NCBI GenBank assembly: GCA_045837725.1
Contig: JBEWZL010000152.1
Coordinates: 124,001-188,000 of the forward strand
Reading direction: 5' to 3'
Length of the DNA: 64,000 nucleotides
From: Vermamoeba vermiformis
Lineage: Eukaryota
Position 1 is the stretch's first letter. Each line of letters opens with the position of its first letter. The notes beneath the pieces were generated by a model. It was given only the letters and a program-made list of their open reading frames with translations, did no database searches and was not told the DNA's origin. The translations under genes were made by a program, and so were the position numbers. Positions 7,968 through 63,251 of this stretch are shown here, one piece after another.

Positions 7968-10900
7968 TTAAAACAATTGCTTTTGCTTCTTCAATTCAAT
8001 GCGTTTCCAATCGGACAAATTTTCAAAGTCTTCTTTGTTCATGCCAAAGATGCGTTCAAACTCTTCGTCCGTCATATATAACTAAAATTCATTATTATTA
8101 TGTATGATATCATAGTATAAAATATATAATATTGTACTACGTACTTCTAATTTCGACTTGTCGCAATATTCAGGTGGACTTTTGATTAATTCTTCGTACG
8201 TATATTTTTTCTTAATTAACTCGAGAACTTCTTCCATTGGTCGAATATGTGCAGAAAAAGCCTAAAAAGGATATTAAGAATATATTTCATTTAAAGTTTT
8301 GTTTTTGTTCGTACCTGAGGATTACTATTTTTGGCATATTCCCAGCCGAAGAAATGAACCGTGAATTCTAACGGCTCTTGACCCGATTTGATGATATTAA
8401 TAGGATCGCCTAGTCTCTCGCCCATAGGATGCTTATCAACATAATCCTATGAAAAAATGGCGATTAGTGAAATTTCCTTATTTGGAAAAGTTTGGAGGTT
8501 CGTACCAGTAAAGTCTCAAGCGTTAATTGCTGCAAAATTGGCACGGAATTCTTTCCAAACCAGACCCAGATCGAATCTTTGCAGTCTAAAATGAAAACAT
8601 CGCGATCGATAAAATCATCTTGCGTGAAATCGAAAATTTCTTCGATCTGTATGGACAAGTTAGCATGAATGTTAATATTACCATATTTGGCAATAAAATT
8701 ATTACCTTGAATTGACCTGTCACAATTTGAGCTTGATAAAGAATTGGCCACGTGTTCGAATTTGATTCTTCGTTCTGTGAAAAGTATCGTTAGTTCAACA
8801 AAACAAAAGCAATAGCAATATAATGCTTTTCCTTATTAGGAAATATTGTCAATAGCCCGTACCTCTGCATAAAGCCAAGGATAAGTCTCGCCGTAGAATT
8901 TTTCACCGCTGGCAGCCAATCCCAAAACATCGACAAAATCATCGTTCATTTGATCAGAACTGAATTCTATCAGCTCGGTATCTTTGCACCAAGCAAGTTT
9001 TTCCGCATTGAACGAAATTTCGTTGTACGGACTTCGCATAAAGTACGTTTTGAGAGGTGTTGTGAGGATCATACTTTCATTAACGTTCACGCTTCGTAGC
9101 CTTGGTTCAACTTCCAATAAAGTGCCTAATTCGAACGAGCCCTTCAGCTGGTACAATTTGGTCTTGTTCAAGTAATTTTCTTCGGCGTTGTATTTGCCCT
9201 TATGAATCACCATTAGGCCACCAAAAATTTTCAAGAAATGTTGTGGCTCTTTTCCTTGAACTACTCGGATCTATTTCATAACGTTAATATAAGATCTTAC
9301 TAGAAAATATGATCGTATTTATTTTACCTGTTTGGCTTCTCCTCCAAGTTTGTCGTCCAGATCTATCGTTAGAACGGCGGAAAATCCTTTGTCCATCTAA
9401 CACATAGCATTAAAATATTGGTAAATAACGAATATTAGCTACGGTATCGTGAGTGAGAATTAAGTGTCAAAGTGTCAAAATGTCAAAAGTGTCACTTACA
9501 ATCGTGCTGTTTCGGCCTTGCCAAAAGTAGATCATCTTATGTTCAGTATTCTTAATAGTATAGGTGTATAATATTAAGTAACTTTCACCGCTGAAAAAGT
9601 GCCCGTAATCTTTCTTCGCCAACGGAACTTTTTCGTTGTTTTCGCTGCGCCGAACAATCCACATCAAAGTTTTTCCGCTGCCGTCATCGATGATGGTTTC
9701 TTTAGGTTTTTGCGGCCTATTAAATAACTTATTCACGTCATATTTAGCCAACGGAACTCGTTTTTTGGCTGCGGGCATTGGCGCAGGTCCCGTGGCAATT
9801 GGCAAGCGACCACCCCAGTTCGCGAACTTGACTTTGAAACTGACGGGCTCGGGGACACCTGATACTAGTTTTTCCACCTTGACCCACTTGAGCTTTTTCC
9901 TGGTCAGTAATGCCTATAAAAGGAAATAATTTGTAAGAGACTTCCAAATATGGAAAAAGTAGTACCTTCGCGTGTTCCGAAGCTTTTTTCCGTACGTCTT
10001 CTGAGGTATTTTTGCCCATCCAGCAATAAACTAAATATAATTAGATGGATATTTCCTAATATGGAAATCATACCTTCGTTAGGGCAGTCCATAACGAAAC
10101 AGAACAAATCGTTTAAGACTTCTTTCATGAATTTGTCTCCTTCGACTTTTTCGATCTGATCTTTGATTCTGTAACAAGATAATTATTACTATATTAGTAA
10201 ATATTCATATCGAACAGTTGTCTTACCTGTACAAATGAATGGCGGGTTTGACGTCTTTCTTTTCTTCGTGTGATGGAATTTCACCTTCAGGATTCAAGTA
10301 ATTCCAAAACTCGTCTTCAATTTCTTCTTTACACTCGCCTATAATACATTTATCATATTAACACTAACTTTGTTTTTCGAAAGTATCAATAAAGGCATAC
10401 CAATCGTGAAAGTTTGAGATCTGCCCATATTATCTTCGTCCTTCAAACGCTTCGCGAAATCGACTGCAATAAAATTAATAAATTTATCGTTGGGAGTTAG
10501 ATAACTATAAATACCTGCAAAGGCTTTTTCCATACGATTGGCTTCAGGTCCGTACCAAACGAATATTTTGTCCTTCGTGTCAAGAACGAACGCGCAGTTT
10601 ACATGCAGCGATTGAAATTTCAGTTCGACCTTCTCAGGGATGAGAATCTTACGGCCTTGAATTTTGTACAAAGAAAATGTCGCTAATTTTTCTTTGCTTG
10701 TCGGGGTTGCTACATGGCGCTACAAAAAATCATTAATATTTCCTTTTATGGCAATGTCAGCCTTACCAATTGAATCATTCGCTTGTGAGGAGTTTCGGGT
10801 ACGTTACTTTTGTTTTGTTGTGTGTGTTGTTCTAACGATTTCATTCCCTAAAAAGGAACATCGCGAAATTAATTTCCATTTTAGTGATATTTGCCAAAAT

Positions 10901-13385
10901 TAGGCAATTACCTGAATCGGATTAACCGTTGGTTTTCTTCTATTTTGAGCACCAGTTGGTTTTCTAGCGGTAGTCAGGCCTGGTTTCGGAACAGCTCCGG
11001 CAGCGGCAGATGTGGTAGTTGTTCCGCCAGCCTTTGCCGCCGCTTTAGTTTTTCCGTCAGCACCCGCGCTCTTTTTAGCTCCAGCCTTTGCCGGGCTATT
11101 TTTAGATCCTTTTGCCGGTGCAGCTTTAGTCTTGCCAGTTGTACTTGAAGTTTTCTTCGCTGCAGCTTTTGTGGTCGTTGCTTTTGTACCTTTTGCAGGA
11201 GCTGCTTTTGTCGCACTTGTCTTTGCATTTGTATTGCTGGCAGTTGATTTTTCAGATTTTTTCGCGGTTGCTTTTGGCGCTGCTGCCTTTGCAGAGGCCG
11301 CGGCAGGTTTTTCCGCTTTGGTAGCCGCCTGTGCAGTCGCCGGCTTCGACTCTTTAGGCTTCGCACTCGAGGCTGTTGTAGTTGGCTTTGCTGCGGGCTT
11401 TTCAGCAGCCTTTGTAGTCGTTGTCGTGGTCGTTCTCGGTGTCTTAACGCTGGCTGGTTTCGGTGCAGTTTTCGCGGCAGCAGTTGATGGTAATGTGACA
11501 GGTGTCAACTTCGGTTTAGCTGCTGCTGAAGTGCTAGTAGCAGCTGGTTTCTCTGTCTTAGCAGCTGTCGTGCTCGTTTTAGTACTTGCTGCTGAAGTAG
11601 ACGTCGCGTGGTTCGCGGAGTTTTGGGCTTAGCTGCCTCAGTCTTTTTTGCAGCCTTAGTTTCTTTTGGCTTGGACGCAGAAACGGCTGTTTTAGTTGTG
11701 GCTCCTGCCGCCGCTGTTGTGCTCGTCTTTGCCGAGGTAGTAGTTGTCGTGGAAGTTCTCGGAGTCTTCGGCTTTTCAGCTTTTGGAGCGACCTTTGTGG
11801 CTGTACTCGTTGTAGTTGTAACTGCTCTAGGCGTCTTAGGCTTAGCAGCCTTAGGCTCCACTTTAGTCACAGTTGCTTCTTTTGCAGCTGTTGCGGTCGT
11901 CTTTGGCTTCGCAGGCTCAGCTTTCGGCTTAACTTCCGTCTTCGAGCTTGTTTTTGCTGCGGCCGTCGTTGATTTTTTAGCTGATGCTGTCACAGTTACA
12001 GATTTGTCCGCTGTCTTCTTCGTCGCTGTAGTTGATGTTGTTGTACGTGGTGAAGGAGCGCTAAGTTTAGACTTTTCTTTTGGTTTTGCGGCTGAGGCCG
12101 TTGTCTTTGTCGTTGAAATCTTGGGAATTCCCGAGGCCTTTGGTTTTGCTAACTTTGAAGCAGCAGGTTTAGCCGTTGTTGCAGAAGGTGCAGGAGCTTC
12201 CTGTAAATTAACTTGCTCAGAACATTGTCCAAAATTTACTATGTTTACCTTTTCCTGCTTTGGCTGTTCTTCGGGCATTTCCTCTTCTTCGTCATCGTGC
12301 GTTTCGTCTTGATGACCAACGGTATGTGGTTCTTCTAACTGGCTTGACTTGACCACTTCCTCATTATTTTCGTGTTTGGTCTCAGATGCCAGATCGTGGG
12401 ACGTGTTTCCTTCATTCACCTCTTGTTCAGCATGATGTTCTTCCTCATCAAGTTCAGTGTCGTGCTTTAATACTTTTGGTTCGGCGTGTATTTCGCTAGC
12501 ATGCTCCGAGTCAGGTGTCTGTGTGGTGCTATTTTCGTTAGAAGGTGCTGGAACATCGTCCGTTTCATTGGCTTCTTCGCAAAACACAGACGCATCGTGA
12601 TCGTGCGTATTTTCAATGTCCTTGACTTCTTCAAGTACATCTTGCGGCGCTTCATCGTGGTGCTCGTTGCTATCCTCATTGTTGGTTGGATTTGCAACTT
12701 CCTCGTGCGGCTCTTCAGTCGCGTCGTCTGCGCTGTCTTCGTGCACCGTCTCTTCAACATTATGACCAGTGTCTGCGTGATTGACACGCACGCCTTCTTC
12801 GTGATGATTTAATACGTTCTCATCGTGGGCAGTGTCATCATGAGATGTCACGTGAGTACTGTCTTCACGTGGACTTGACACGTGCTCTTCGTTCGTTGTT
12901 TCTGGCTCTTCGTGGTACTCTTCTGTGACATCAGCTTGATCCTCTTCATGATAATCTTCGACTACAGCTGTTGCTGCATCTTCTGAAGCTGGTGCCTCGA
13001 TGCTGCCGTCGTGTTGAACAACCTTGTCAGACGACACATCCGCGACATCGTTGCTATCTTCGGGCGACTCATTATTCAGTTGATCTGCCGAAAATTCTTC
13101 GTGCTCGGGAGTCTCAACGTGTTCATGACTAGGATTTTCCTGTTCATGAACGACAGGCGCGGGATTATCCTCGAGTTTGACCTCATTGGCAGGAGTAGGT
13201 TTTTTCTTCAACCACGGCTTTTCAGCGGGATATACTCGTTTAGGCGTTAATAGCTCTTCGATGCTTTTTTGTTTTGATTTTTCTACGAGTTCATCGCCGT
13301 TAGGGTTGTAAAAAGTCGGACCTGTCTCGTCATCCAAGATCTGCTCATCGTCTACTGCATTATCTACGTCCTCATTGTCAGACAT
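7968..13385 (-). CDS. Large villin/gelsolin-family actin-binding protein: acidic His-rich N-terminus, Lys/Thr/Ala/Pro-rich region, gelsolin repeats, C-terminal villin headpiece; apparent frameshift near 11608
   Basis: Gelsolin motifs CAFVLDTKDKIFVWYG, YGHFFSGESYLILYTY, IYFWQGRNS, DVFILDCKDSIWVWFG; headpiece YMTDEEFERIFGMNKEDFENLSDWKRIELKKQKQLF*; ORFs 11505-13385 and 10900-11508 join after a 1-nt shift. Confidence 0.88.
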
Positions 13386-13962
13386 TACCTAATATAACAT
13401 ATAAATTAGCATTAGAATGCATTAGTGCCTAACGTCAACAGAAAAAAAAGCAAAAATTAAATTTAAAATATCTCATGCACTCGGAAATTACGTAAATACT
13501 CGGTATAATACAATTATTAATGCGGTAGCATTTTTTAAAATAAATTTTAGCGAATTAAACAATCAAATCCGAAAAAGCGGGTTAAATCTGCTGTTAAGTT
13601 TCGATAGTTACCTAGAATTGATACAAATTAATATCCTTATTGTTGACCACTTGTGACGAGCTTTACAATTCGATTCAATTTAAAAACTTATTCATGAAGC
13701 TGAAAAACGGAAACAAAAACACGGTTTCAGTTTATCCCGGCCCTTTACCCCGCAAATCCACATTAGCAACAAAAGATATGCTGCTAAGCAGTCGTAAAAA
13801 TAGGAGATTGATTGAGGATCCGCAGTTTCCATTTTGAGCCAGCTAATCTGCTTAAAAAGGCGAAAACGATCCTTTACGCTAGGTTGTTTATTATTAACAA
13901 TAATAAAGCGACTACATACATGTACAACAAAATTTACATCAGCTAATACTACAAGTTCTTTC

Positions 13963-38906: not shown

Positions 38907-40640
38907 ATGGAGGTAAGGTCCAAATAACACGCACATCACGAACTTTACACGCTGAGCCTAATAAATCAATAAAAACCTTGAAATATTTCATTTAAAATTA
39001 TTACACCGCGATTTTTATTTTATTCTGAATTTTATTTCAGGTGTCAAGCGAATCTCCATCCGCATCCATTGCCGCTTTACCGAAGGAGTTACTGGCCGTT
39101 ATAATCAAGAGCATTCATCCCTACGACACAATATTTCTTCGAGCAACGAGCAAAGGGTTCAACAGGCTTTGCAAGGAGTTTCAACCATTCCCTCAGTTTC
39201 ACGTGCTGGATCAAAACAAGTGCATGGCTTATCTCATCGAGAATGGCTCCATATCATGCTTAGACTATGTCAAGAACGTATTGCACTTCGAATGGACGTC
39301 AGAACAATGCTTTAGTGCAGCACGATGTGGTCAAGTTGAAGTGCTCAAACATCTTCGTTCGAACGGCTGTCCGATTGATAATCCATCAGCGATTATCGAA
39401 TGCACCAAAGGAACATGCAATATTGATATGATCAAATACTTACACGAGAATGGTGCGTCTTGGAACCAAGTGGATCCGACGTCAAAGAACCAAATCTCTA
39501 TACCGAATTTTGGAGTCTTTGACCGTAACAACACCGTGCAAACAGTGACTGAGAATATGGCATTTCACGGTCACTTAGAGTGCCTTAAATATGCAGTTCA
39601 GAATGGTTGTGAAAACAAACAATTGTGGTACACGCCGTCGATCGAATGCTTGGACTTTGCCATCAATAACGGCTTTCTTTGGGGTGGTGGAATTGGCTCG
39701 CTCGTCCTTGGGACACGTAGCAGTATGATTCCCGTCAAAATGAACATTTGCGAAGAAGCTGCTCACCGAGGAGACCTCACCATACTTAGCTACGCACATC
39801 AAAAAGGAGCAGCGTTCAATAACAGCGCTTCATTTGCAACAAGAGAAGGACACCTTCAGTGTCTTAAATACGTTGTAGAAAACTCTGCTATGCCGTTGCA
39901 AAGAACTCCAGGAAATTTTGGCATCAAGACAATCGAGTGCTTGCAGTACTTGTTAGAGAAGTTAGATAGAGAAACAATTGACTTAAAATCACATACCATA
40001 TGGTCTTCAGCGGCAGCATCGATCGATTATCTCAAATTTGTTCATGACGTCAAGATCCCAGTGCCTTCATCACGACTCGAATCGTTGTTAGAAAAAGCAG
40101 CTTGGTCCATCGAAACATTCAATTTTATGCTTAATATCGTCAAGGTATCAAATCCAACGATGATTCTATTTGGTGCGTGTGCTGAAAACGGATATCTTGA
40201 AGCATTAAAACTCATTGACATGTCGCCCGGCGGAGATTTCAGCGGCATCGGCAAAACTTGCGATTAAACAAGCAATTCGATCGAAGATAGTGGCTGTATT
40301 GGAATTTGTATGGAATTACTTTCCAAATAAGGAAGAGTTCAGCAAGCACGAGTGGATTCTTTTAGTTTCTACGTCCACACCTGAAATACTCGATTTCTTT
40401 ACCAAAAAAGGAATGATATGGACTTCAGAGCACATCAAATTTGCAGCGGACGGCGGAAACTTGGCGAATTTGGCGTACTTGACGCGGATCGGATGTGAGT
40501 TAGCCTTGCATTGTAGCAGCAAATACTAATTTGTATTCATAGGCCAATGGAGCATCGAATTTAGGCCCATTTTTGCAACAGGCCATCATATGTGCATTAA
40601 GTACGCGCAAGAACACGGATGCAAGAAATTTCTACGATAA
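38907..40640 (+). CDS. F-box + ankyrin-repeat protein, copy A; apparent +1 frameshift at ~40226
   Basis: Micro-exon ATGGAG|gtaagg spliced to 39041; F-box LPKELLAVIIKSIHPYDTIFLRATSKGFNRLC; repeats such as WTSEQCFSAARCGQVEVLKHLRSNGCP; last exon CIKYAQEHGCKKFLR*. Confidence 0.8.
39167..39375 (+). repeat. 209-bp near-identical coding block shared by the three F-box/ankyrin genes (also 41011-41219 and, inverted, ~53433-53641)
   Basis: By-eye alignment: 4 mismatches between copies A and B, all synonymous. Confidence 0.9.
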
Positions 40641-40890
40641 TTTTGCCAACGTAAAAGCCAAGTTTAAAGTTTTATTTCGAACTGTATTTATTAAACAACA
40701 GAGCACACAGCTACACTGGGCTGACTGGAATAACTTGAACCGAATGGAGGAAAGTGAAGATTCGATAATTTTCCAATAAATTCGACGATAAATATTTAAT
40801 CAAAATATTATTTAATGCAAGCTAATAATCGGCTATATTATTATTGATAAATTGCGCCATCTGCCCTATTTTTAAAATATTTATTTTCAG

Positions 40891-42498
40891 GTGTCAAACG
40901 AATCTGCATCCGTTCTCACTTTGCCGAAAGACGTGTTAGGTCTTATTGTCAAGCATACGCATCTCTACGACACAATATTCCTACGAGCAACAAGCAAATG
41001 GCTCAACAAGCTTTGCAAAGAGTTTCAACCTTTCCCTCAGTTTCACGTGCTGGATCAAAACAAGTGCATGGCTTATCTCATCGAGAATGGCTCCATATCA
41101 TGCTTAGACTATGTCAAGAACGTATTGCACTTCGAATGGACGTCAGAACAATGCTTTAGCGCAGCACGATGTGGTCAAGTTGAAGTGCTCAAACATCTTC
41201 GTTCGAATGGCTGTCCGATACATGAACAAACAGCTCTTGCTGCGTGCACTCAAGGCACGTGCTCGTTGTCAATGATCAAGTACTTGCACGAGAGCGGCGT
41301 ATCTTGGGACCAGCTAGATCCAAATGCCGAAGGCATGCAAGCTGAGGCCCATCTAACGTCAGACATGGCACAACACGGCCACATTGATTGCATCAAGTAC
41401 GCAGTTCAAAATGGCTGCGACGACAGGAAAACACATTACACGCCTTCGATTGAATGTTTGGACTACTTGATCCAAAACGATTTTGACTGGAGAGACAAAT
41501 TTAACCCAACACTAGGGCCTAGTCAAAAACGGATTAAAATGACATCTTCTAAACTAAGCATTTGCGAAGAAGCAGCTGGTCGAGGTGATCTAACTATGCT
41601 CAAATACGCTCATCAGAATGGAGCCCCGCTGAATGATAGTGCCATGGTCGCAGCCAAAGAAGGCAAGCTAGATTGTCTTATTTACGCAATAGAGCACGGC
41701 GACAGCAAGCAAGTTATACCGCATAACATCAAGACTATCGAATGTTTCAAGTACTTGCACAATAAGTTCGGATTCGACGCGGTGACAAAGAACTTTCGTT
41801 GGTTTCATCCGATTTCAAGTGGCGTGGAATATCTTCAATTCTTATGCGACATTAATGTCCCGCTGCCTGGTGCCGTGGAGCCAGATAGTGATGAAGCCAG
41901 GATCGAACGGATGATTGCATTTTCAAAGGCCGCGGATAAGTTTGAAACGTTCAAATTTGCCCTCGATCACTTCAAATTTCCTTCACCAACGTCATATTTG
42001 TATTACCCATGTGCTAGAAGCGCTAATTTAGAAGGCTTGAAAATGCTGTTTGAACGAAACATTCCTTTTGCTACAACGAAAGAAGAGGAGAAAAATGTGG
42101 TCAGCTTAATTGGCAGTGCTATTAGCTCGAAGAACTTGGACGCGATGAAATTTATATGGGACAAATTTTCCAAGATCGACGGATTTAGCATGGAAACGGA
42201 TTGGCTGGACGAGGCAGCGATGTTTTCGGCCCCTACTATCCTCAATTTTTTGACGGAAAAAGGAGCAAAATGGGATTCAAAACACCTTCAACATGCTGCA
42301 CGTAACCAAAATTTGCCTAATTTGGCATATTTGACGAAGATCCAATGTAAGAACCAAAAAAAGGTTTTGCTTTGAAACGCCGAATCTTTCTAACAATTAC
42401 TAAATTTAGGTCAATGGAACGAAACGCCGTGTCAATTAGACCAAGGCAACATTTGCGTCAAATACGCACGAGAACACGGTTGTACGAAATTTCAATAA
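40891..42498 (+). CDS. F-box + ankyrin-repeat protein, copy B; first exon/start uncertain
   Basis: 494-codon ORF starting right after the acceptor ttttcag; F-box LPKDVLGLIVKHTHLYDTIFLRATSKWLNKLC; ankyrin-like repeats; last exon CVKYAREHGCTKFQ*. Confidence 0.82.
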
Positions 42499-52161: not shown

Positions 52162-53764
52162 TTACGCCGATTTCTTTTTCTGTTCAAATTTCCAGCAGCC
52201 ATGCTCGCGGGCGTATTTGATGCACTCATTATAATTTGATATGCAACGTGCTTCGTTCCATTCACCTAAAAAAAGTCAGAGATACATAAGGTGCTGCTAA
52301 CTACGTACATCCAATTCGAGTCAAGTATGCCAAACTAGGTAAGTTTCCTTCTTCCGCAGCCTTTTGCAAATGCGTTGTGGTCCATTTCGCACCGCATTCC
52401 GTCATAAATTGCAGAATTTCTGGCGTTGAATGACATACTGCCACAGTTAAAACATCTTCGATATTAAAACCTTCCTTATTTGGAAACAGATTCCAAACGA
52501 AGTTGACGACTTCAATTTGCTTCGATAAGATTGCACTGATTAATATCTCCTTAAAGTTGTTCAACTTTAGATAGCATGATTCTTCAATCACTTCGCTTGT
52601 TGTGTCGGATATTTTTCTATTGTTGACAGGCGAAGACGCCTCATCATGCTTGTAATAAGGAAGATTTCGCTCAACAGCGATTTTCAAGCCTTCAATGCTG
52701 CCACGTCTAGCCAACAAAGTGTACACATCAAACCAGGCATATACGGATCGCGGTAAGTGATCGATAAAGAACTTCAATGTTTCCACTGAATCAGCAGCTC
52801 TATCGACTATACTTTCACACTCTGCGTCATCTATTGGTAATGGAATTCCGCTGTCAATTACGAAATGCAAATATTCCACATTTGTTTTTGCAGGCACTTT
52901 CCAGTCGAAATGTCTAGCAATTGTTTCAAGTCGAAATTTGCCAAGTAAGTACTTCAGGCACTCAATAGTCTTTATAGCCGTGGGCAGATTGATGAACTTT
53001 GAATTTTCTATTGCGTAGATCAAACAGTCTAGGTGCCCTTCTTCGGCCGCTGTCAGACTGCTATCGTAAAGTTCTGCGCCGTTCTGATGTGCATGCTTCA
53101 GAATCATCAGATTGCCACGCTTTGCTGCTTCTTCGCATATTGTAAGTGGTCGGTGCTGTCCATACACAAGAAAGCCTCGAGCTGCACCTTTCCAATTCAA
53201 GTTATACTCAATCATGAAGTTCAAACACTCTATCGTAGGTGTATAGCCGACTATCTGACCGCTATAGCCGTTTTGAAAGGCATACATGAGGCAGTCAATA
53301 TGTCCTTGACGAGCGATATTTGCAAATGCCAAGTGCAGTGAACTGCTGATCTGACAGGTCTGGTGCAAGTACTTGATCATTGACAACGAGCACGTGCCTT
53401 GAGTGCACGCAGCAAGCGCTGTTTGTTCATGTATTGGACAGCCATTCAAACGAAGATGTTTGAGCACTTCAACTTGACCACATCGTGCTGCACTCGAGCA
53501 TTGTTCTGACGTCCATTCGAAGTGCAATACGTTCTTAACATAGTCTAAGCATGATATGGAGCCATTCTCGATGAGATAAGCCATGCACTTGTTTTGATCC
53601 AGCACGTGAAACCGAGGGAATGGTTGAAACTCCTTGCAAAGCTTTCGGAACCATTTGCTTGTGGCTCGTAGGAATATTGTGTCGTAAAGATTCAAAAAAT
53701 TGAATATTACGCCCCAAGAATCTTTTGGTATCGAGGTAAAAGCGGATGCAAATTCGGTTGACAT
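52162..53764 (-). CDS. F-box + ankyrin-repeat protein, copy C
   Basis: ATG at 53764; F-box IPKDSWGVIFNFLNLYDTIFLRATSKWFRKLC; shared ankyrin block; last exon CIKYAREHGCWKFEQKKKSA*. Confidence 0.85.
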
Positions 53765-54056
53765 CCCTAAAACTAGCTGACGTTATATAATATTTTTAGA
53801 ATAAAAATAATTAGGGCAATAATATAATAATTAAATATTATCTTTTTTGAAGGTGACCTGAAAATCAGGTTTCAAGCCTTTTTAACTTACGTGTCGTAAT
53901 TATAAAACTCTTATTCCCCTATTTTGTGGATAAAATTTGACCTTTGTGGTGGTTAGGAAGCGGATTGAAAACAATAATTGATTTGTGAATCTTCGGTTCT
54001 CTTCACCTTTTAAAAGTTTATTATTTAACAACTATATTGTACAAAAACATTCCTTT

Positions 54057-56421
54057 TTACACATCAACACTATCGTTAGTTGATCCGTCAGGAGGAGTGC
54101 TAATCGGATTAGCCACAGTGGTCGTAGTGGCACGCATTGAGTGGCCCGAATTCGCCGATTTGTTGGAGGTCGATGAAGTTTTACCGTTAGGAGTCTTAAA
54201 TAAGTATATTCTAGCCCACGAATCGAGCATCAACAGCGCGTAGATGAACGCGGATGCTGTCACGTGAGGAATTGGCACCGATGAAATTTCAGGGGCAATG
54301 AATATGATAACGGGTATCAATGAGACGACTCTCGTAGTGCCATTGATAATAATCTTCTTATTGATCTGGATATTTATTTGCGTTAGCACGTGACTCACGA
54401 ATATTTCCTTTTATAGTAATTTGAATGAGACGTACCGTTCGAAGTTTCATTTTTCTGCCTTGACGCATGTTGTTTGCGTGTTTGACTTGTTTGCTGACTT
54501 TAACGACAGTAATAATATAAAAGACTAAGAAGGCAACGGAAACGATGACGTAGATGATGATGAGCGGTGTAGTGACGCTGAAGTTCAAGAAATAGCCCAA
54601 AATTGTCACCAATTGCAGCACGACAATGAATCCGATAATAAACACGAAGAAAAACACCTTGAACTTGGACAAGAACGGGTAGACTTTCACCGACGCGTCT
54701 GTCAGCGCTTCGTACCTATCACAATAAAACCGTTTGTTAGCGTTAAAGAGAAAACAGTTTGTCAGTGACAATGATTCATAAGCAAATGAATAAACACTGC
54801 CTTGGAATTGACACTGAGTGTCAAAGTGTCAAAGTGTCAAATTTAAATTTAACGGCTCCGCTCCGAAAAAATCCATTTCTGACCCAACCCGAATGTTGTT
54901 CGGAATATGCTTACCAATAGAACGTGATCAATATGAACGTGGCAACTTCATAAGGAAAGCTGATCGTGGTGACGAATGAAAATGCTTGGCCGTACACTCC
55001 GAAGCAGCCGAACGGATCCACAGGCAAATAGATCAATCGCACTAAGATAGAAAGTATATAATAAGCATTTAATAAATCAAATGAAACTCGACTATGATTT
55101 AAGAGTAAAACTTGCCAAATTAAGATGAAAATATCTTTTTGATTAAGTAACGAAGACCGCCTCCGCGCTCAATAAATTCATCGGAAAAAGATGCAATATT
55201 ATCGTACTTACGTAAATTAGCGATAATTTCCAAAGCGAGCGATACTTGAGGCACGCTAAATTGGTGGCCTTGATGACGAATAAAAAGAATCATTTTGTAC
55301 AGCGCGTAAATGATTAGCGCTACTGCCGCTGCAGGCAATAGTGCTCTGAATACGACGATGACTCCGGTATTAACGATGGTACGGATCCAGGGACTTCCTA
55401 TTTTGGAAATTTGTAAATTAATTAGTGTACGGCCGATATCCGTATATACGGTTATATTCCGAATAAATTTGATAATTACTATACTCTCGATTTCTCGATT
55501 TTCATTTTACGAAATTCCACTTCACGAATCCAGACAGAAATTTGATGCCAAATTTAATGCCACGCCAATAAATTAAATGATTATGATAAACAATGGTTGC
55601 ATGAAGATGAAATAACAAAATAAAAATTCAAAATATCGGCAGTTCCACTGGCAAAATGTTTGCCTCCATCATCCAAACTTTGCAAGAATTTCACGAGAAA
55701 GATTTTTGTGCGACACGGTATACGAAGACGTACCTTCAGAAGTAAGCGTTGCATTGACTACGGTACCGTTCATCAGTGCATTAAGAATTGGCTGGAATTT
55801 TTTGTTGCTGATCTCGGCCATCGGGATCGTAACAACACCGCTTGGGTGATTTGCTGTGAGACCGCATCCGCTCTGACCAGGAACCACTATGAATCAAAAT
55901 TAATATAATTTCATGAAATAATGATTTAAGTGATAATAATCTTATAATGTGCACATTGAAGTACACATGGATGCACAACGTATTAAATTTTCGGGGCTAC
56001 GTACGCGCACTACTTCCGTATAATACGGCAATTGCTCCTCGGTCTTGAAAATCTTTTACGGAGGCAACGAATGTTAAGTAATCGCCCTTTGGAAAATAAA
56101 CTATTTTGCCTTGCAAATCCGTAGCACCGGATTCTGTCAATGTCGCAGAAACTTCGTCAAAGATACTATTCAAATCATCACCTACATCAAATAATATATT
56201 AATATGCGGGATTTGGTGCTTTTAGGCAATTTCAAACGATAAATTTTTCTCGTCTCGAAACAAATCCGTCGCGTACCTTCCCAATAATACTGCGACGTTT
56301 CGAGGCTGAAGTTGCCAATAATAGGGTCGTCGATTATCAGTCTAGCGCTAGCTTCGTTCGCGAGTAATCCAATTGCAATGGCAATCGCTACACAAATCAA
56401 ATAATGACCGAGTAATTTCAT
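54057..56421 (-). CDS. Signal peptide + PA-like domain + 7TM receptor-like protein, paralog 4; 7 exons
   Basis: MKLLGHYLICVAIAIAIGLLANEASA; QYYWEG; LQGKIV; GQSGC; IPMAEI; FSVPQV; DPFGCFG; DSWARIYLF; closest to paralog 1. Confidence 0.87.
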
Positions 56422-56797: not shown

Positions 56798-59033
56798 CTA
56801 TCCACGAGCCTCGCTTGCAATGATATCCTCGTTCGTCGAAGTTGGTACAGGAGGCACATCCGACGATCTGTTTTCATTTGCAATGGCATTACTTGACTTG
56901 CGTGAATGAGGTACTGTGAACAAATATATCCTAGCCCACGAATCAAGCATGATGAACGCATAAATGAATGCTGAATCGATCACGTGGGGCACTGGCACGT
57001 CATTAACCGTAAGGGGAATGAACACGAGCACGGGGATCAGGGCCAAGAGTCGTGTCACACCGTTGAGTATAATCTTCATATTAAGCTATAATATGAGAGA
57101 CGTTAGTACCTTGATTATATTGCCCAATTCGCGGAGCGAACAGTATTTCACCGCGTCGGAATAAATTTTGCGGATGTGATCTGGATGCGGCAATGGTTTT
57201 TTCGCTACATAATCATTACTTACCTTTTTAATACTCTTACTATCCTTTACTCGCATATTTCGATTCTGGTGCACCTTCTTGGTTATTTTGGCGACGATGA
57301 CTATGTAGAAAATGACGAAAATGACTGATACGCCAGTGTAGATGATAATCAACGGAAAAGTGATGTTGAATGCCAAAACTAGGCCCAATATGCTCACTAC
57401 GAGCATCGCTGTTAAGAATCCAATCGCTATGATGAAAAACGCAATGCGGGATCTTTTCAGAAACGGATACACTTTGATACTCGCATCCGTAATGGCTTCG
57501 TACCTTAAATACACAAGTGAGCATCCCAATACCTTAAAATTCAAAAATGTGCTCAAAAAATAAATTTCAATCGGATCTGGGTTGATGAATGATGACCTGT
57601 CTCCGACTTGAAGAATCACAATCTGACAGTATCTAGCGTGCGTATATCTAATTAAATATTATTCAGCTTACCAATAAAGTGTAATAAGCATGAACGTAGC
57701 AACGTCGAATGGAAAACTAATCGTAGTCAGCAATGGAAATGCGAAGCCATAAACACCAAAGCAGCCGAACGGATCTACCGCGAAATAGACAACTCGAACT
57801 AAAATACAAAAATAGCGTTAACATAATACTAAGAAATTATGCCTATAAATAGATTGGCTCCGATTTGTTTGCGATCTCGGAAGTGCCTTCCGTTACACGA
57901 GCATGCTCGGCTTCACCTTATTAAACTAGCGATGAAAATATTACATACGTATATTAGCGATGATTTCTAGAGCTAAGCAGACTTGAGGCACGTTGAAGAC
58001 TGAGCCTTGAGCGCGGATGAACATGATCAGCTTGTACAACGCATAGCCGATTAGACCAACCGCAGCTCCAGCCAATATGACACGAAAAACTACTATGACT
58101 GCTACCGATCGCAGCGTACTTGTCCAAATATTACCTAATTAAGAATCAGATCTGGTATGAATACTGACGTTTTTTGCAAAAAATTGCTGCAATAGCCATA
58201 TCGCAATTATCACCATTTAGAAAATAATACAATTGCAGTATGTAGCTGTTTTCGATACAATTTGAGAAAGTGGAAGCGACATCCAGTAAAGATTGAAAAT
58301 TAATTCAGTACGTACCATCAGACGCTAAGTTAGCTGCAATGAGCTGACCTTTCAATACACCCTCAAGTATTGGTTGAAAATCAGCTGCATATATTTCTGC
58401 AACGGGGATGCTGACTTCGCTCGTTTGAGTTCCGCCGGCCAAAGCACAGCCACTTCGCCCGGGAATAGCTATCGATTGAATTAATTAATATTTATATTCA
58501 TTCAACGCCGTTTGAGCTTATTCCCGTGGATTAAATGAGAAAATTGAGCTAATTTTACCTAATCCAGCAAGGTTTTGTTTTCTCTCGAATCCGAGAATGA
58601 TTCAATTCATTATCTCAAAGTATTAATTACCTGAAGTAGATCCATATAACACTGCTGCTCCTCCAGCATTTTGTATTCTTTGAACCTCTGATAGAAAAAA
58701 GCTATCGCCTACTTTTGCCAAGTATACGATCCTGTTTTTGAGCTGTGATTGTGAGGCATCTGCTAGAAATCCTGATACCGGATCGAACAGAGTTCCTAGT
58801 TCATCGCCTATATAATATGTATATTAGCGTCGGTAATTAAAAAAAAAATTTTTTCTCGCTACGCTTGATCCGGATGGAAAACGGAAATATATTGGCTTGC
58901 CTTTAAAGTAATATTGCGCCGACGGCAAGGTAGTATTATACCGAGGTACTGTTAGTGTCGCCGATACTTTAAACACTGCATAACTCGATAATAATACGAG
59001 CAAACATATTTGTGTTGATCGACTGATATTCAT
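56798..59033 (-). CDS. Signal peptide + PA-like domain + 7TM receptor-like protein, paralog 5; 7 exons, first intron GC-AG
   Basis: MNISRSTQICLLVLLSSYAVFKVSA; QYYFKG|gcaagc; GRSGC; IPVAEI; FNVPQV; DPFGCFG; ITLYW; DSWARIYLF. Confidence 0.85.
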
Positions 59034-61059: not shown

Positions 61060-63251
61060 ATGGAAAGAAATAACTACAGAAAGAACGTTAAGCGGCCAGA
61101 GGTGGAAAAAAATCAAGAAAAATTGACGTGTGTGCCTACGGATAAATTAAAGGTAAGGGCAAGCAGCTCTAAGCTTTAACGGTCAATAAAATTTAAATTA
61201 TTAAAATGAGAAATTTTAAATAATTCTAATTTATAATCGCTGTTCAGGCCCTAATTGCTCGAGTAAATAAATATTAATTTGCTAAATTACTAATACGGTT
61301 ATTATTTACAGCCGCTGCAAGGTGATCGCAAAAATATCGTGCTCTTTACGGTTGGCTCATTTTGTCCCGTTCACTATAATCACGTAAGTTTGTCTAGGAT
61401 CTCTATTTTAAAAATATTCTCAAATTTTGAATATTTAATTGAGTAGCATTCAATGAAATGTGGATGCGCATGGCGCGTACTCGATTGCCGCTATTTATCA
61501 TTTGCCCGTACTATTTGTGGCCAAAACTTACAAAAATCAATAATAAGTGGCCTTATATACCCTTATATCCACAAATTATTTCAATCGATGCACAAGAAAA
61601 AGAACAGAAACCGACCCAAAATAATGTCGCATCCGTTTTGCGTCGCGCTTCATTAACCGTTGCTTATGACGTAATGGTTTGGGCGAGTTGTATACGGTGC
61701 ACGTTATGTTATTAACTGTGAAATCACCTTCTGGACGAGTACATGTTTGGGAGCGTTATATAGATTCGTTTCAGCAATGGAACAAATTCAGATCAGGTCT
61801 TTCACAAGTTGTAGCTTATCGGTCGGAGTGGTTCATCGTCTTCTTATCTTTAAATTACTGGATTATCTGGATAAGTACACGTTGGCATACTTCGTCAGAG
61901 CTGCAGCTTTGAAATACTTCGATTTGCGACCTGTTAGCGGTGAATTCATCGTGGACAGGTCACTTACCCCCCCTATGGTCATACGACTATAGATCTATCA
62001 CTTGACGCAACCACCGTGCACTCTCCCGTTCAATTTCTTTTTTGCTTCCGCTCGATCCTCGATCCTACTTCCGTTTTTACTCTCGCCTATATCTTTCTTT
62101 ATTTACTATAATGTACTTGGGTGGAAGTGATAATAATATACATGTACAGATCCGCATGATGACTGCAGCCAAAGAGTACCTCGAAAACAGCGGCAAGTTT
62201 TTGGTAGTCGGTGGATTTCTTTCAATAACGTAAGGCATTTATTTGGAGAACACTATAGTATACTTCTATTGTCCGTTGAATTTGGTGCATGACTAACGAG
62301 ATGCTCTCGGACAGACCTGACGATCGTTTGAAAAAGAAAGTTGGAGCTGATCTGGCGATACCAGCAGTCCATCGTCGTGAAATGTGCAATATATTAGCGT
62401 CAGATCTGGATTGGCTTGCTATTGAAACTTCGCAGTACACGCACAACACCAACACTGCCGCGGCAAAACGACTTGTACAAAACGTTGTAGATCTGCATTA
62501 TGGACGTAAGTTTCGGTTATTATTATCGTATTTATGTATATTGATGCGATAAGGCATTGCAAATATTATTTCCTGCTAGCTCGTGCGAGATTGTTCGTGG
62601 AGCTATTTCTGGATTATTCCGCCCAGCGAAACGAAAAAGTTACCTTTAATGGTCGGATAGTATCCACTAGTGCCTCCTCGAATTTCTCCTCGTGCATCTT
62701 AAATAATTAAAGCACAAATCGATTAATTTGGAAAGACCTCTTTGTGCACCTGGATCCGGGATTCGGATCTCTTTGGTCATTCACGAAAAATAGTAGACTT
62801 ACATTTGTATTCGCAGCTAATCGTGTCTCTGTCATGTCAGTATCTGGTGGTGACTCGTTCCTGAAAATCAAGTCGCAGAAGACCTTTGATGAAGGTACAT
62901 TCCTATCGGGATCGCGCACGTTGAAAACTCGTTAACTGACAGTTTCCTATGCTAGGACTCGTTGTAGTCATTAATAGAAAGGTCGATTTTGACATTCATG
63001 CCCAAATTGCTGCTCACCCATTCGTTAATCACATGCTCGACAAGTCCGTATTCATTCTTTGGGAAGATAACTGGGAAAACACTGAAATGAGCTCCACTAA
63101 GATCAGAAACGCCCTATTAGAAGACAGTGATAGTGTAAATAACAATACGAACAATAACAACGCAAATGACGGCGCTAACCCGCCGCTGCTGGATCCGCGC
63201 ATCTACAAGTACATGAAGGAACATAATTTGTTGTATAAAAGGAAGAGATAA
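61060..63251 (+). CDS. NMNAT: Nicotinamide/nicotinate mononucleotide adenylyltransferase-like protein, multi-exon with one 766-nt intron
   Basis: GSFCPVHYNH|IRMMTAAKEYL...VVGGFLS; HRREMC; GGDSF; LVVVINR; MSSTKIRNAL; LDPRIYKYMKEHNL. Confidence 0.82.
61681..62043 (+). ncRNA. Candidate structured non-coding RNA (identity unknown) inside NMNAT intron 61384-62149
   Basis: Terminal helix 61681-61699/62012-62027, second long-range helix 61753-61765/61993-62008, hairpins 61895-61912, 61928-61961, 61973-61992; G-U pairs favour the + strand; T6 run 62038-62043. Confidence 0.5.

Follow-up and report, generated by a model that had tools for sequence, protein, structure and literature searches.

Structured RNAs encoded within the introns of unrelated genes have been described in animals: in insects and crustaceans, according to two reports (PMC4287351, PMC6797745), the RNase P RNA lies in an intron of a gene transcribed by RNA polymerase II (Pol II). 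Here we analyze a comparable arrangement in a 64,000-nucleotide (nt) stretch of Vermamoeba vermiformis DNA (contig JBEWZL010000152.1, positions 124,001–188,000; the whole stretch is referred to as the window), in which an element at 61681–62027 on the + strand sits within a 766-nt intron of a putative NMNAT gene. We describe it as an intron-embedded, multi-copy, structured small RNA gene of no assigned class, and it probably specifies a stable, trans-acting structured non-coding RNA (ncRNA) of ~345 nt, the RNA of a ribonucleoprotein (RNP), from an undescribed family. Like intronic RNase P RNA, the element is a structured RNA of ~300–400 nt that lies sense in an unrelated gene's intron and accumulates free, and its terminal stem would define the ends of the molecule. 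Unlike RNase P RNA, it has no RNase P/MRP match up to an E value of 10, and it has several paralogues with an exchangeable hairpin.

Other described systems share different features with this locus. The dictyostelid RNAs that carry the promoter element DUSE (Class I RNAs and small nuclear RNAs, snRNAs; PMC7919456) are likewise multi-copy, with an end-pairing stem and a variable interior, and likewise have a CCCA-type motif ~60 nt upstream and a T run downstream. Class I RNAs are, however, far shorter, and the upstream motif of our element departs from the DUSE consensus and is not enriched. Hammerhead retrozymes and small circular RNAs are similar in their few-hundred-nt unit, strong folding, genomic DNA copies, abundant RNA and single junction; unlike hammerhead retrozymes, the element has no hammerhead and yields no junction reads in X21, an RNA run described below.

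A strand-specific fold and a discrete RNA

The initial annotation of the window, made from the sequence alone, had proposed a structured RNA hidden in this intron. Folding of 61681–62027 as the + strand gave −120.7 kcal/mol (z −5.59), and in this comparison with shuffled controls, which was set beforehand, 0/100 dinucleotide shuffles equaled it. For the reverse complement, z was −0.47 and 30/100 shuffles were as good; the host-intron flanks on either side of the element gave z values of −1.73 and −1.33. The whole 64 kb was also scanned in 347-nt segments at a step of 100 nt, with the energy regressed on G+C (637 segments). On the + strand, the segment at 61701 was the most extreme of all 637 (−4.3 standard deviations, sd, after G+C correction), and the runner-up was a G+C-rich coding stretch at 11201 (−4.26 sd), which we take as a composition effect. 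The minus-strand scan was unremarkable at the element (residuals −0.18 to +1.87 sd). The fold comprises 124 pairs, 22 of which are G-U and therefore account for the strand asymmetry, in line with the claim of the annotation that G-U pairs favor the + strand. Ensemble diversity was 22, compared to 89 ± 20 in 20 shuffles. When the whole intron was folded with its exon edges, the inner domain (61753–62008) remained the same and only the outermost stem re-paired elsewhere. The fold of the element is strand-specific, well defined and beyond chance.

The annotated length of the host intron is borne out by spliced reads (Table 1), as is its more GC-rich middle (G+C 0.39–0.465 over 61600–62100 vs. 0.29–0.37 in adjoining intron sequence); by reading, the other introns of the host gene measure ~157, 85 and 300 nt. 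The name putative NMNAT comes only from motifs of the translation, which carries GSFCPVHYNH and SSTKIRNAL. In our reading, GSFCPVHYNH and SSTKIR, both of nucleotidyltransferase type, are the pair of motifs that mark NMN/NaMN adenylyltransferases. A Pfam search with single exons gave no match, PDB sequence searches returned nothing relevant, and a protein atlas provided only a weak cytidylyltransferase-like lead (0.85).

Twenty-four public runs were listed, and four of them (X21, X4, X9 and X19) were compared base by base with 61250–62300. Twenty of the 24 contain part of the intron; these come from 11 studies, and eight of them are recorded as RNA. The greater part of the intron is present in no more than two, the best DNA runs of what we call organism A, with 0.84 and 0.55 of the words sampled. 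In 18 of the 20 the share is at most 0.40, which approximates the element's share of the intron (347/767 nt), and a low-coverage DNA run of the source sample (X10, 41 million letters) likewise has 0.30 of the words.

X21 consists of raw RNA reads with the same species label as the best DNA run and with exons diverged from the window. Summed depth in this run was 125–165 over the conserved modules of the element and ~28–36 over the exons (a 4–5-fold excess); in the rest of the intron it was 0 over 61394–61573 and at most 1.4 up to 61681. At the outer borders of the element, depth tapers towards 61682 and 62041 (38 in 61682–61717, 15 in 62006–62041 and ~0 beyond), the pattern expected at molecule ends, and at the inner borders of the variable region it stays high as reads pass into unlike sequence. 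A test for a discrete transcript had been set beforehand, and with a depth of ~160 on the element, ~30 on the exons and ~0 in the other intron sequence, the RNA is discrete and distinct from both the host mRNA and the remaining intron sequence. The element was also found in X4, an RNA run without host exons. Opposite-strand (fold-back) joints in X21 cluster at 61696–61808 and are presumably artefacts of second-strand synthesis primed by hairpins, close to the 5' end of an RNA that folds strongly.

At its 3' end, the RNA stops at about 62024–62028, 10 nt short of the T6 run. An X4 contig on 61917–62028 (record 5) starts exactly at 62028, and two X21 reads show C plus nine A following 62028. A contig from X9 (121 nt, depth 24; neighboring contigs 55–93) passes from 62024 over 13 further letters to 61692, in a head-to-tail arrangement, and could represent a natural circle, a tandem copy pair, or ligation or template switching of ends held together by the terminal stem. 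Under any of these three readings, the ends lie within a few nt of 61681 and 62024–62028. At the threshold used for reporting, no joint of this kind appears among the raw reads of X21.

Conserved modules and an exchangeable hairpin

Conservation in relatives was a further test set beforehand. In X21, we counted 3 fixed differences in the ~214 nt of the two conserved modules, compared to 18 in the 152 nt of the exons (Table 1 gives the split). A spliced exon-3 contig from X9 differs at 13 of 81 positions, and element contigs of the same run differ at 2 of 124 (record 7) and 4 of 177; two X4 contigs (records 2 and 4) are identical to the window over 61721–61844 and 61815–62011 (0 differences). 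The window's version of the variable middle is 98–100% conserved in X4, X9 and X19. Each variant, including its variable hairpin, is 97–100% alike between organisms whose exons are 84–88% alike, which points to selection and not to decay. An observation of its own is that X21, despite sharing the species label of the best DNA run, has 18 differences from the window in 152 exon positions: the label seems to span clearly diverged lineages.

At least two to three variants co-exist per run, and they differ in 61796–61918. In X4 (record 3), 61796–61916 is swapped for 132 unlike letters; the same break is seen in X21, where 55 reads leave at 61795 and 86 enter at 61919, and a second, minor variant of this run diverges over 61849–61889. 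Contigs from X9 omit 61773–61914 and 61849–61918, and one variant shows a length change of +11 nt. The unit is made up of two conserved modules and an exchangeable middle, and because co-existing variants swap the middle hairpin for unlike sequence, the element belongs to a small multi-copy family. A search for a second copy in the 64 kb found none (blastn, word size 9), and exact-pattern scans with two conserved stretches gave 0 loci in viral, metagenome and prokaryote contig collections.

The variation modestly supports the fold. Among nine well-supported substitutions, five are unpaired, three keep their pair (G-U to A-U, A-U to G-U) and one breaks it; eight of the nine are fold-compatible, compared to a mean of 4.85 on random placement of the same types (P 0.02). 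The replaced segment is flanked by a predicted pair (Table 1). Its unlike replacement has mutually complementary ends, with nine consecutive pairs (two of them G-U) and then ~10 more with one bulge, as worked out by hand, so that the hairpin persists despite the change of sequence; the G-U pairs of this replacement hairpin suit the + strand only. Indels in the minor X21 variant show that the hairpin tip has been remodelled.

Much of the pairing proposed in the initial annotation is present in the minimum-energy fold: the ends of the element pair, GCGTTA/ATAGAT pairs with ATCTAT/TGACGC, and the hairpins GACCTGT...ACAGGTC and CTATGGTC-ATAC-GACTATAG both form. The palindrome TCAGAGC-TGCA-GCTTTGA exists as described, but the fold puts its bases into the long hairpin. 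Similarly, the alternative partners suggested for ATCTGGATAAGTAC are real complementarities by reading, but the fold picks a third partner (61843–61849), and nothing supports the switch or pseudoknot postulated there. The X9 junction variant has an additional A positioned, by reading, to pair with U62024, which is a bulge in the window copy. The run of seven C at 61967–61973 is the sole C7/G7 run in the 64 kb, and in 4/4 of the compared runs it is free of listed differences, with 34 further differences outside the list.

Table 1. Coordinates of the structured element, its parts and its host gene in the window.
Feature	Position	Strand	Basis and remarks
Structured RNA unit, ~344–348 nt	61681–62027	+	Fold z −5.59; RNA depth limited to 61682–62041; relatives' contigs stop at 62024–62028; X9 junction
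Closing stem P1, 5' strand	61681–61699	+	Pairs with 62012–62027 in fold
Closing stem P1, 3' strand	62012–62027	+	Fold
Conserved 5' module	61692–61795	+	Two hairpins, inner-stem 5' strand 61753–61766, small hairpin; 1 fixed difference in X21
Variable part of long hairpin	61796–61918	+	Entire hairpin 61789–61926; 61795 and 61919 are a predicted base pair
Conserved 3' module	61919–62028	+	2 fixed differences in X21 (61936, 61965)
Hairpin GACCUGU...ACAGGUC	61928–61961	+	Minimum-energy fold
Longest unpaired stretch, ACUUACCCCCC	61962–61972	+	List of unpaired runs in fold
Hairpin CUAUGGUC-AUAC-GACUAUAG	61973–61992	+	Fold
Inner stem, 3' strand	61993–62008	+	Pairs with 61753–61766; persists in whole-intron fold
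T6 run	62038–62043	+	10 nt beyond RNA 3' end; depth ~0 from 62042
ACCCAAAA, DUSE-like 8-mer	61614–61621	+	60 nt upstream of 61681; not significant
Host intron	61384–62149	+	766 nt, GT..AG; 16 spliced RNA reads connect 61383 with 62150
Host exon	61062–61154	+	By reading
Upstream host exon (exon 2, 72 nt)	61312–61383	+	Translation ...GSFCPVHYNH; RNA depth ~30–36; 6 fixed differences in X21
Downstream host exon (exon 3, 80 nt)	62150–62229	+	Splice joint; loose end 62229 continuing into next exon; 12 fixed differences in X21
Host exon	62315 to ~62510	+	By reading; more exons downstream

Family assignment, biogenesis and competing explanations

As judged by sequence searches, the RNA matches no described family. 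A covariance-model search of Rfam 15 (4227 families) gave 0 matches in the whole window at gathering scores; at E values up to 10 over 61300–62250, it returned only mir-9418 (E 4.9) and CrcZ (E 7.6), both off the element and at chance level. RNase P/MRP, SRP, U3, snRNA, 7SK, Y RNA, telomerase, riboswitch and small-ribozyme families of Rfam were not matched, and the annotation had likewise been unable to match RNase P/MRP, SRP, U3 or TPP, for which the Rfam check found none up to E 10. Neither an NAD+ or TPP riboswitch nor any other aptamer model in Rfam matched, and no tRNA genes were found. Resemblances to the conserved regions of RNase P/MRP, to the SRP Alu domain, to Y RNA and to U1 were 7–8-nt coincidences in the wrong order and without Rfam support; the unpaired ACUUACC, which we take to be the motif of the U1 5' end, was counted among them as a coincidence.

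Ribozyme and coding candidates were also rejected. The hammerhead core has the motif CUGANGA ... GAAA ... UH. A regular-expression search found no CUGANGA on the + strand even with the unit circularized, and the sole one on the minus strand sits in the variable part, where no helix II is possible (by hand). For an HDV-like ribozyme, the first 7 nt lack a P1 partner (by hand). A stop-free frame of 105 codons (61675–61992, +) nearly coincides with the element, with an estimated chance probability of ~1%; a coding reading of it was rejected on the grounds that it has no Pfam family, that 2/7 fixed substitutions fall at third positions, and that one variant is longer by 11 nt.

In the model that we favor, 61681–62027 would be one gene copy of a multi-copy family in sense orientation inside the intron of the putative NMNAT gene. 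The terminal stem P1 would close the RNA, and the inner stem would surround a multi-branch core, made of conserved hairpins together with an unpaired C-rich stretch and a single long hairpin, the sequence of which would change between family members with the hairpin shape kept. The RNA would act in trans as part of an RNP, with the protein-binding or active parts carried by the conserved 5' and 3' modules and the exchangeable hairpin serving as a member-specific arm.

Several points weigh against this model. No family, motif or partner indicates a function. Of the 470 X21 reads placed, 392 fit only partly, which means that most of the RNA derives from other members of the family; evidence that this intron copy in particular is expressed comes only from X4 and X9 contigs, which could include DNA. 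The X21 library behaves as unstranded, with mate orientations about equal on the exons too, and for this reason the transcribed strand is deduced from the fold and its G-U pairs. X21 shows no sharp pile-up of read starts or ends, so that the ends are known to ~10 nt, and the window copy has the minority letter at both 61936 and 61965. Within the minor X21 variant, 4/13 substitutions disrupt predicted pairs at the hairpin tip, and the variation test was scored on a fold derived from the same sequence, which favors the fold. Finally, X9 may mix organisms, which would weaken its exon/element comparison, and the differences listed for the X runs leave out 34 differences and 24 loose ends.

An independent RNA of RNA polymerase III (Pol III) was one of two hypotheses in the annotation. 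A free-standing RNA fits the data better than the alternative of a cis-acting element. The DUSE-like ACCCAAAA does stand ~60 nt upstream, but it occurs five times in the window with 2.7 expected, a count reached by 9/100 shuffles and not significant. The canonical DUSE pattern has four matches with 5.75 expected, none of them near the element. In dictyostelids, DUSE lies ~60 nt upstream and is expected to be limited to Dictyostelia (PMC7919456). The T6 run, a candidate terminator, is present, but the RNA ends before it, and by reading there are no A/B boxes in the conserved modules. Of the traits expected of a stable RNA processed from an intron, in the manner of snoRNAs or insect RNase P RNA, the element has sense orientation in a spliced intron and a terminal stem; its level, which in such an RNA is tied to the host, is 4–5 times that of the host, with other loci contributing. 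Synthesis from its own promoter, perhaps by Pol III stopping at the T6 run and followed by trimming, has a little less than an even chance in our estimate. A tentative second option is that the RNA is freed from the spliced intron, which would be trimmed as far as P1, and a smaller likelihood is left for some other route.

The main rival, unlikely on balance, is a mobile or repeated unit (a SINE-like retroposon, satellite monomer or retrozyme-like unit) that landed in the intron, with the RNA coming from other copies. A multi-copy family with conserved ends and a variable interior is what such a unit would produce, the intron copy is exactly one unit long, and the ends form an imperfect inverted repeat, but the fold is strand-specific, unlike a DNA-level palindrome, and the close likeness of each variant between organisms with far more divergent exons indicates selection. 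The X9 contig that joins 62024 to 61692 head to tail recalls animal retrozymes, which are tandem units of similar size (PMC4918200, PMC7761336, bioRxiv 10.64898/2026.07.22.740005). The raw X21 reads lack this joint at the reporting threshold, however, and a DNA depth of only ~12 in X19 argues against a major satellite. The + strand has no hammerhead core, circularized unit included, and no Rfam ribozyme was found up to E 10, though a motif split across the unit ends could be missed. An 8-nt direct repeat, TCCGTTTT, at 61632 and 62070 would suit an insertion, but by reading the unit borders show no poly(A), A/B boxes or convincing target-site duplication. This 8-mer forms the identical beginning of an imperfect 17-nt direct repeat (61632–61648/62070–62086), located 33 and 42 nt outside the element, which could be the target-site duplication of a larger insert or chance, as we estimate that ~4–5 such 8-mer pairs are expected in 767 nt.

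The second hypothesis of the annotation, a cis-acting splicing regulator of an NAD-synthesis gene, fits less well and, as a purely cis-acting element, appears very unlikely to us. A structure of this kind would shorten the splice-site distance or mask the 5' splice site and so tune host splicing, possibly in response to a metabolite. Sense orientation and an unusually long intron would be in keeping with it, and with its closing stems formed the structure would leave ~350 of the 766 nt looped out, but the unit exists in several variants, is conserved beyond the exons and appears in RNA runs without host exons or intron flanks; it also accumulates 4–5-fold above the exons, with the other intron sequence at ~0. 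By reading, ACUUACCCCCC holds ACUUAC, the 6-nt complement of the host 5' splice site GUAAGU, but most family members have C at 61965, which makes the match to GUAAGU weaker, and in the whole-intron fold the 5' splice site pairs elsewhere. A metabolite-responsive form is countered by the lack of any riboswitch family match.

We also considered that the family might be the telomerase RNA of a lineage with G-run telomeres. Similar to telomerase RNA are the size, the helix-closed core, the single unpaired UA-C7-UA with a hairpin directly upstream, and the T run downstream. In this scheme, UA-C7-UA (61965–61975) would serve as template, either for repeats of the (T)AG7 type or, through slippage, for A-G(1–8), the hairpin at 61928–61961 would form the template boundary, and the inner stem (61753–61766/61993–62008) would be the core-closing helix. 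Telomerase RNA is usually the product of a single gene and carries an unpaired template that complements about 1.5 of its own organism's telomere repeats. Unlike the usual single gene, our element has at least two to three co-expressed variants, and no pseudoknot and no Rfam telomerase match were found. We regard this assignment as a long shot, in part because of the several co-expressed variants. In D. discoideum, the telomere repeats are A-G(1–8) and the telomerase RNA is not known (PMC6592521); if the assignment were true and the organism related to dictyostelids, the telomerase RNA question there would become testable.

A chance structure or assembly oddity without function, with which the absence of a known family match and of homologues in the three contig collections would agree, is hardly credible given that none of 100 shuffles folds as well and that independent runs, from 11 studies in all, show the element to be conserved and expressed.

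Neighboring genes and significance

Elsewhere in the window, Pfam finds ankyrin repeats and a weak F-box match in three paralogues, each of a single exon, at 39029–40267 (+), 40876–42375 (+) and 52301–53782 (−). Their first ~100 residues are nearly identical, and they seem to be a family that expanded recently, in a region otherwise rich in introns. For an LRR gene of the window, the closest protein is 43% identical. Two adjoining open frames, 54358–54828 (−) and 57086–57658 (−), are apparent paralogues by reading, and the latter has a weak tetraspanin match under the Pfam cut-off. A long low-complexity open frame (acidic/His-rich, then Ala/Thr/Lys-rich) occupies 10900–13388 (−), upstream of gelsolin-repeat exons (8467–10719); the low-energy + strand stretch at 11100–11800 corresponds to low-complexity, G+C-rich sequence that codes on the opposite strand.

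Small shares of the intron also occur in X11–X18 and X20, which include both RNA and DNA and bear metagenome labels (water, biofilm, sludge, wastewater and root). Carriers of the element may be common, these small shares being only a lead from which we make no habitat claim.

To our knowledge, eukaryotic structured ncRNAs of 300–400 nt are few, and nearly all are ancient RNP cores (RNase P, MRP, SRP, telomerase, 7SK and U3). The element has the size of an RNP core and a well-defined fold, and it evolves several times slower than the surrounding coding exons. Its position in an intron offers a natural way to ask whether host introns can also be a source of such RNAs in organisms other than animals. 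Knowing its protein partners and what the exchangeable hairpin does could establish a new class of RNP in a eukaryotic lineage that has been little sampled.

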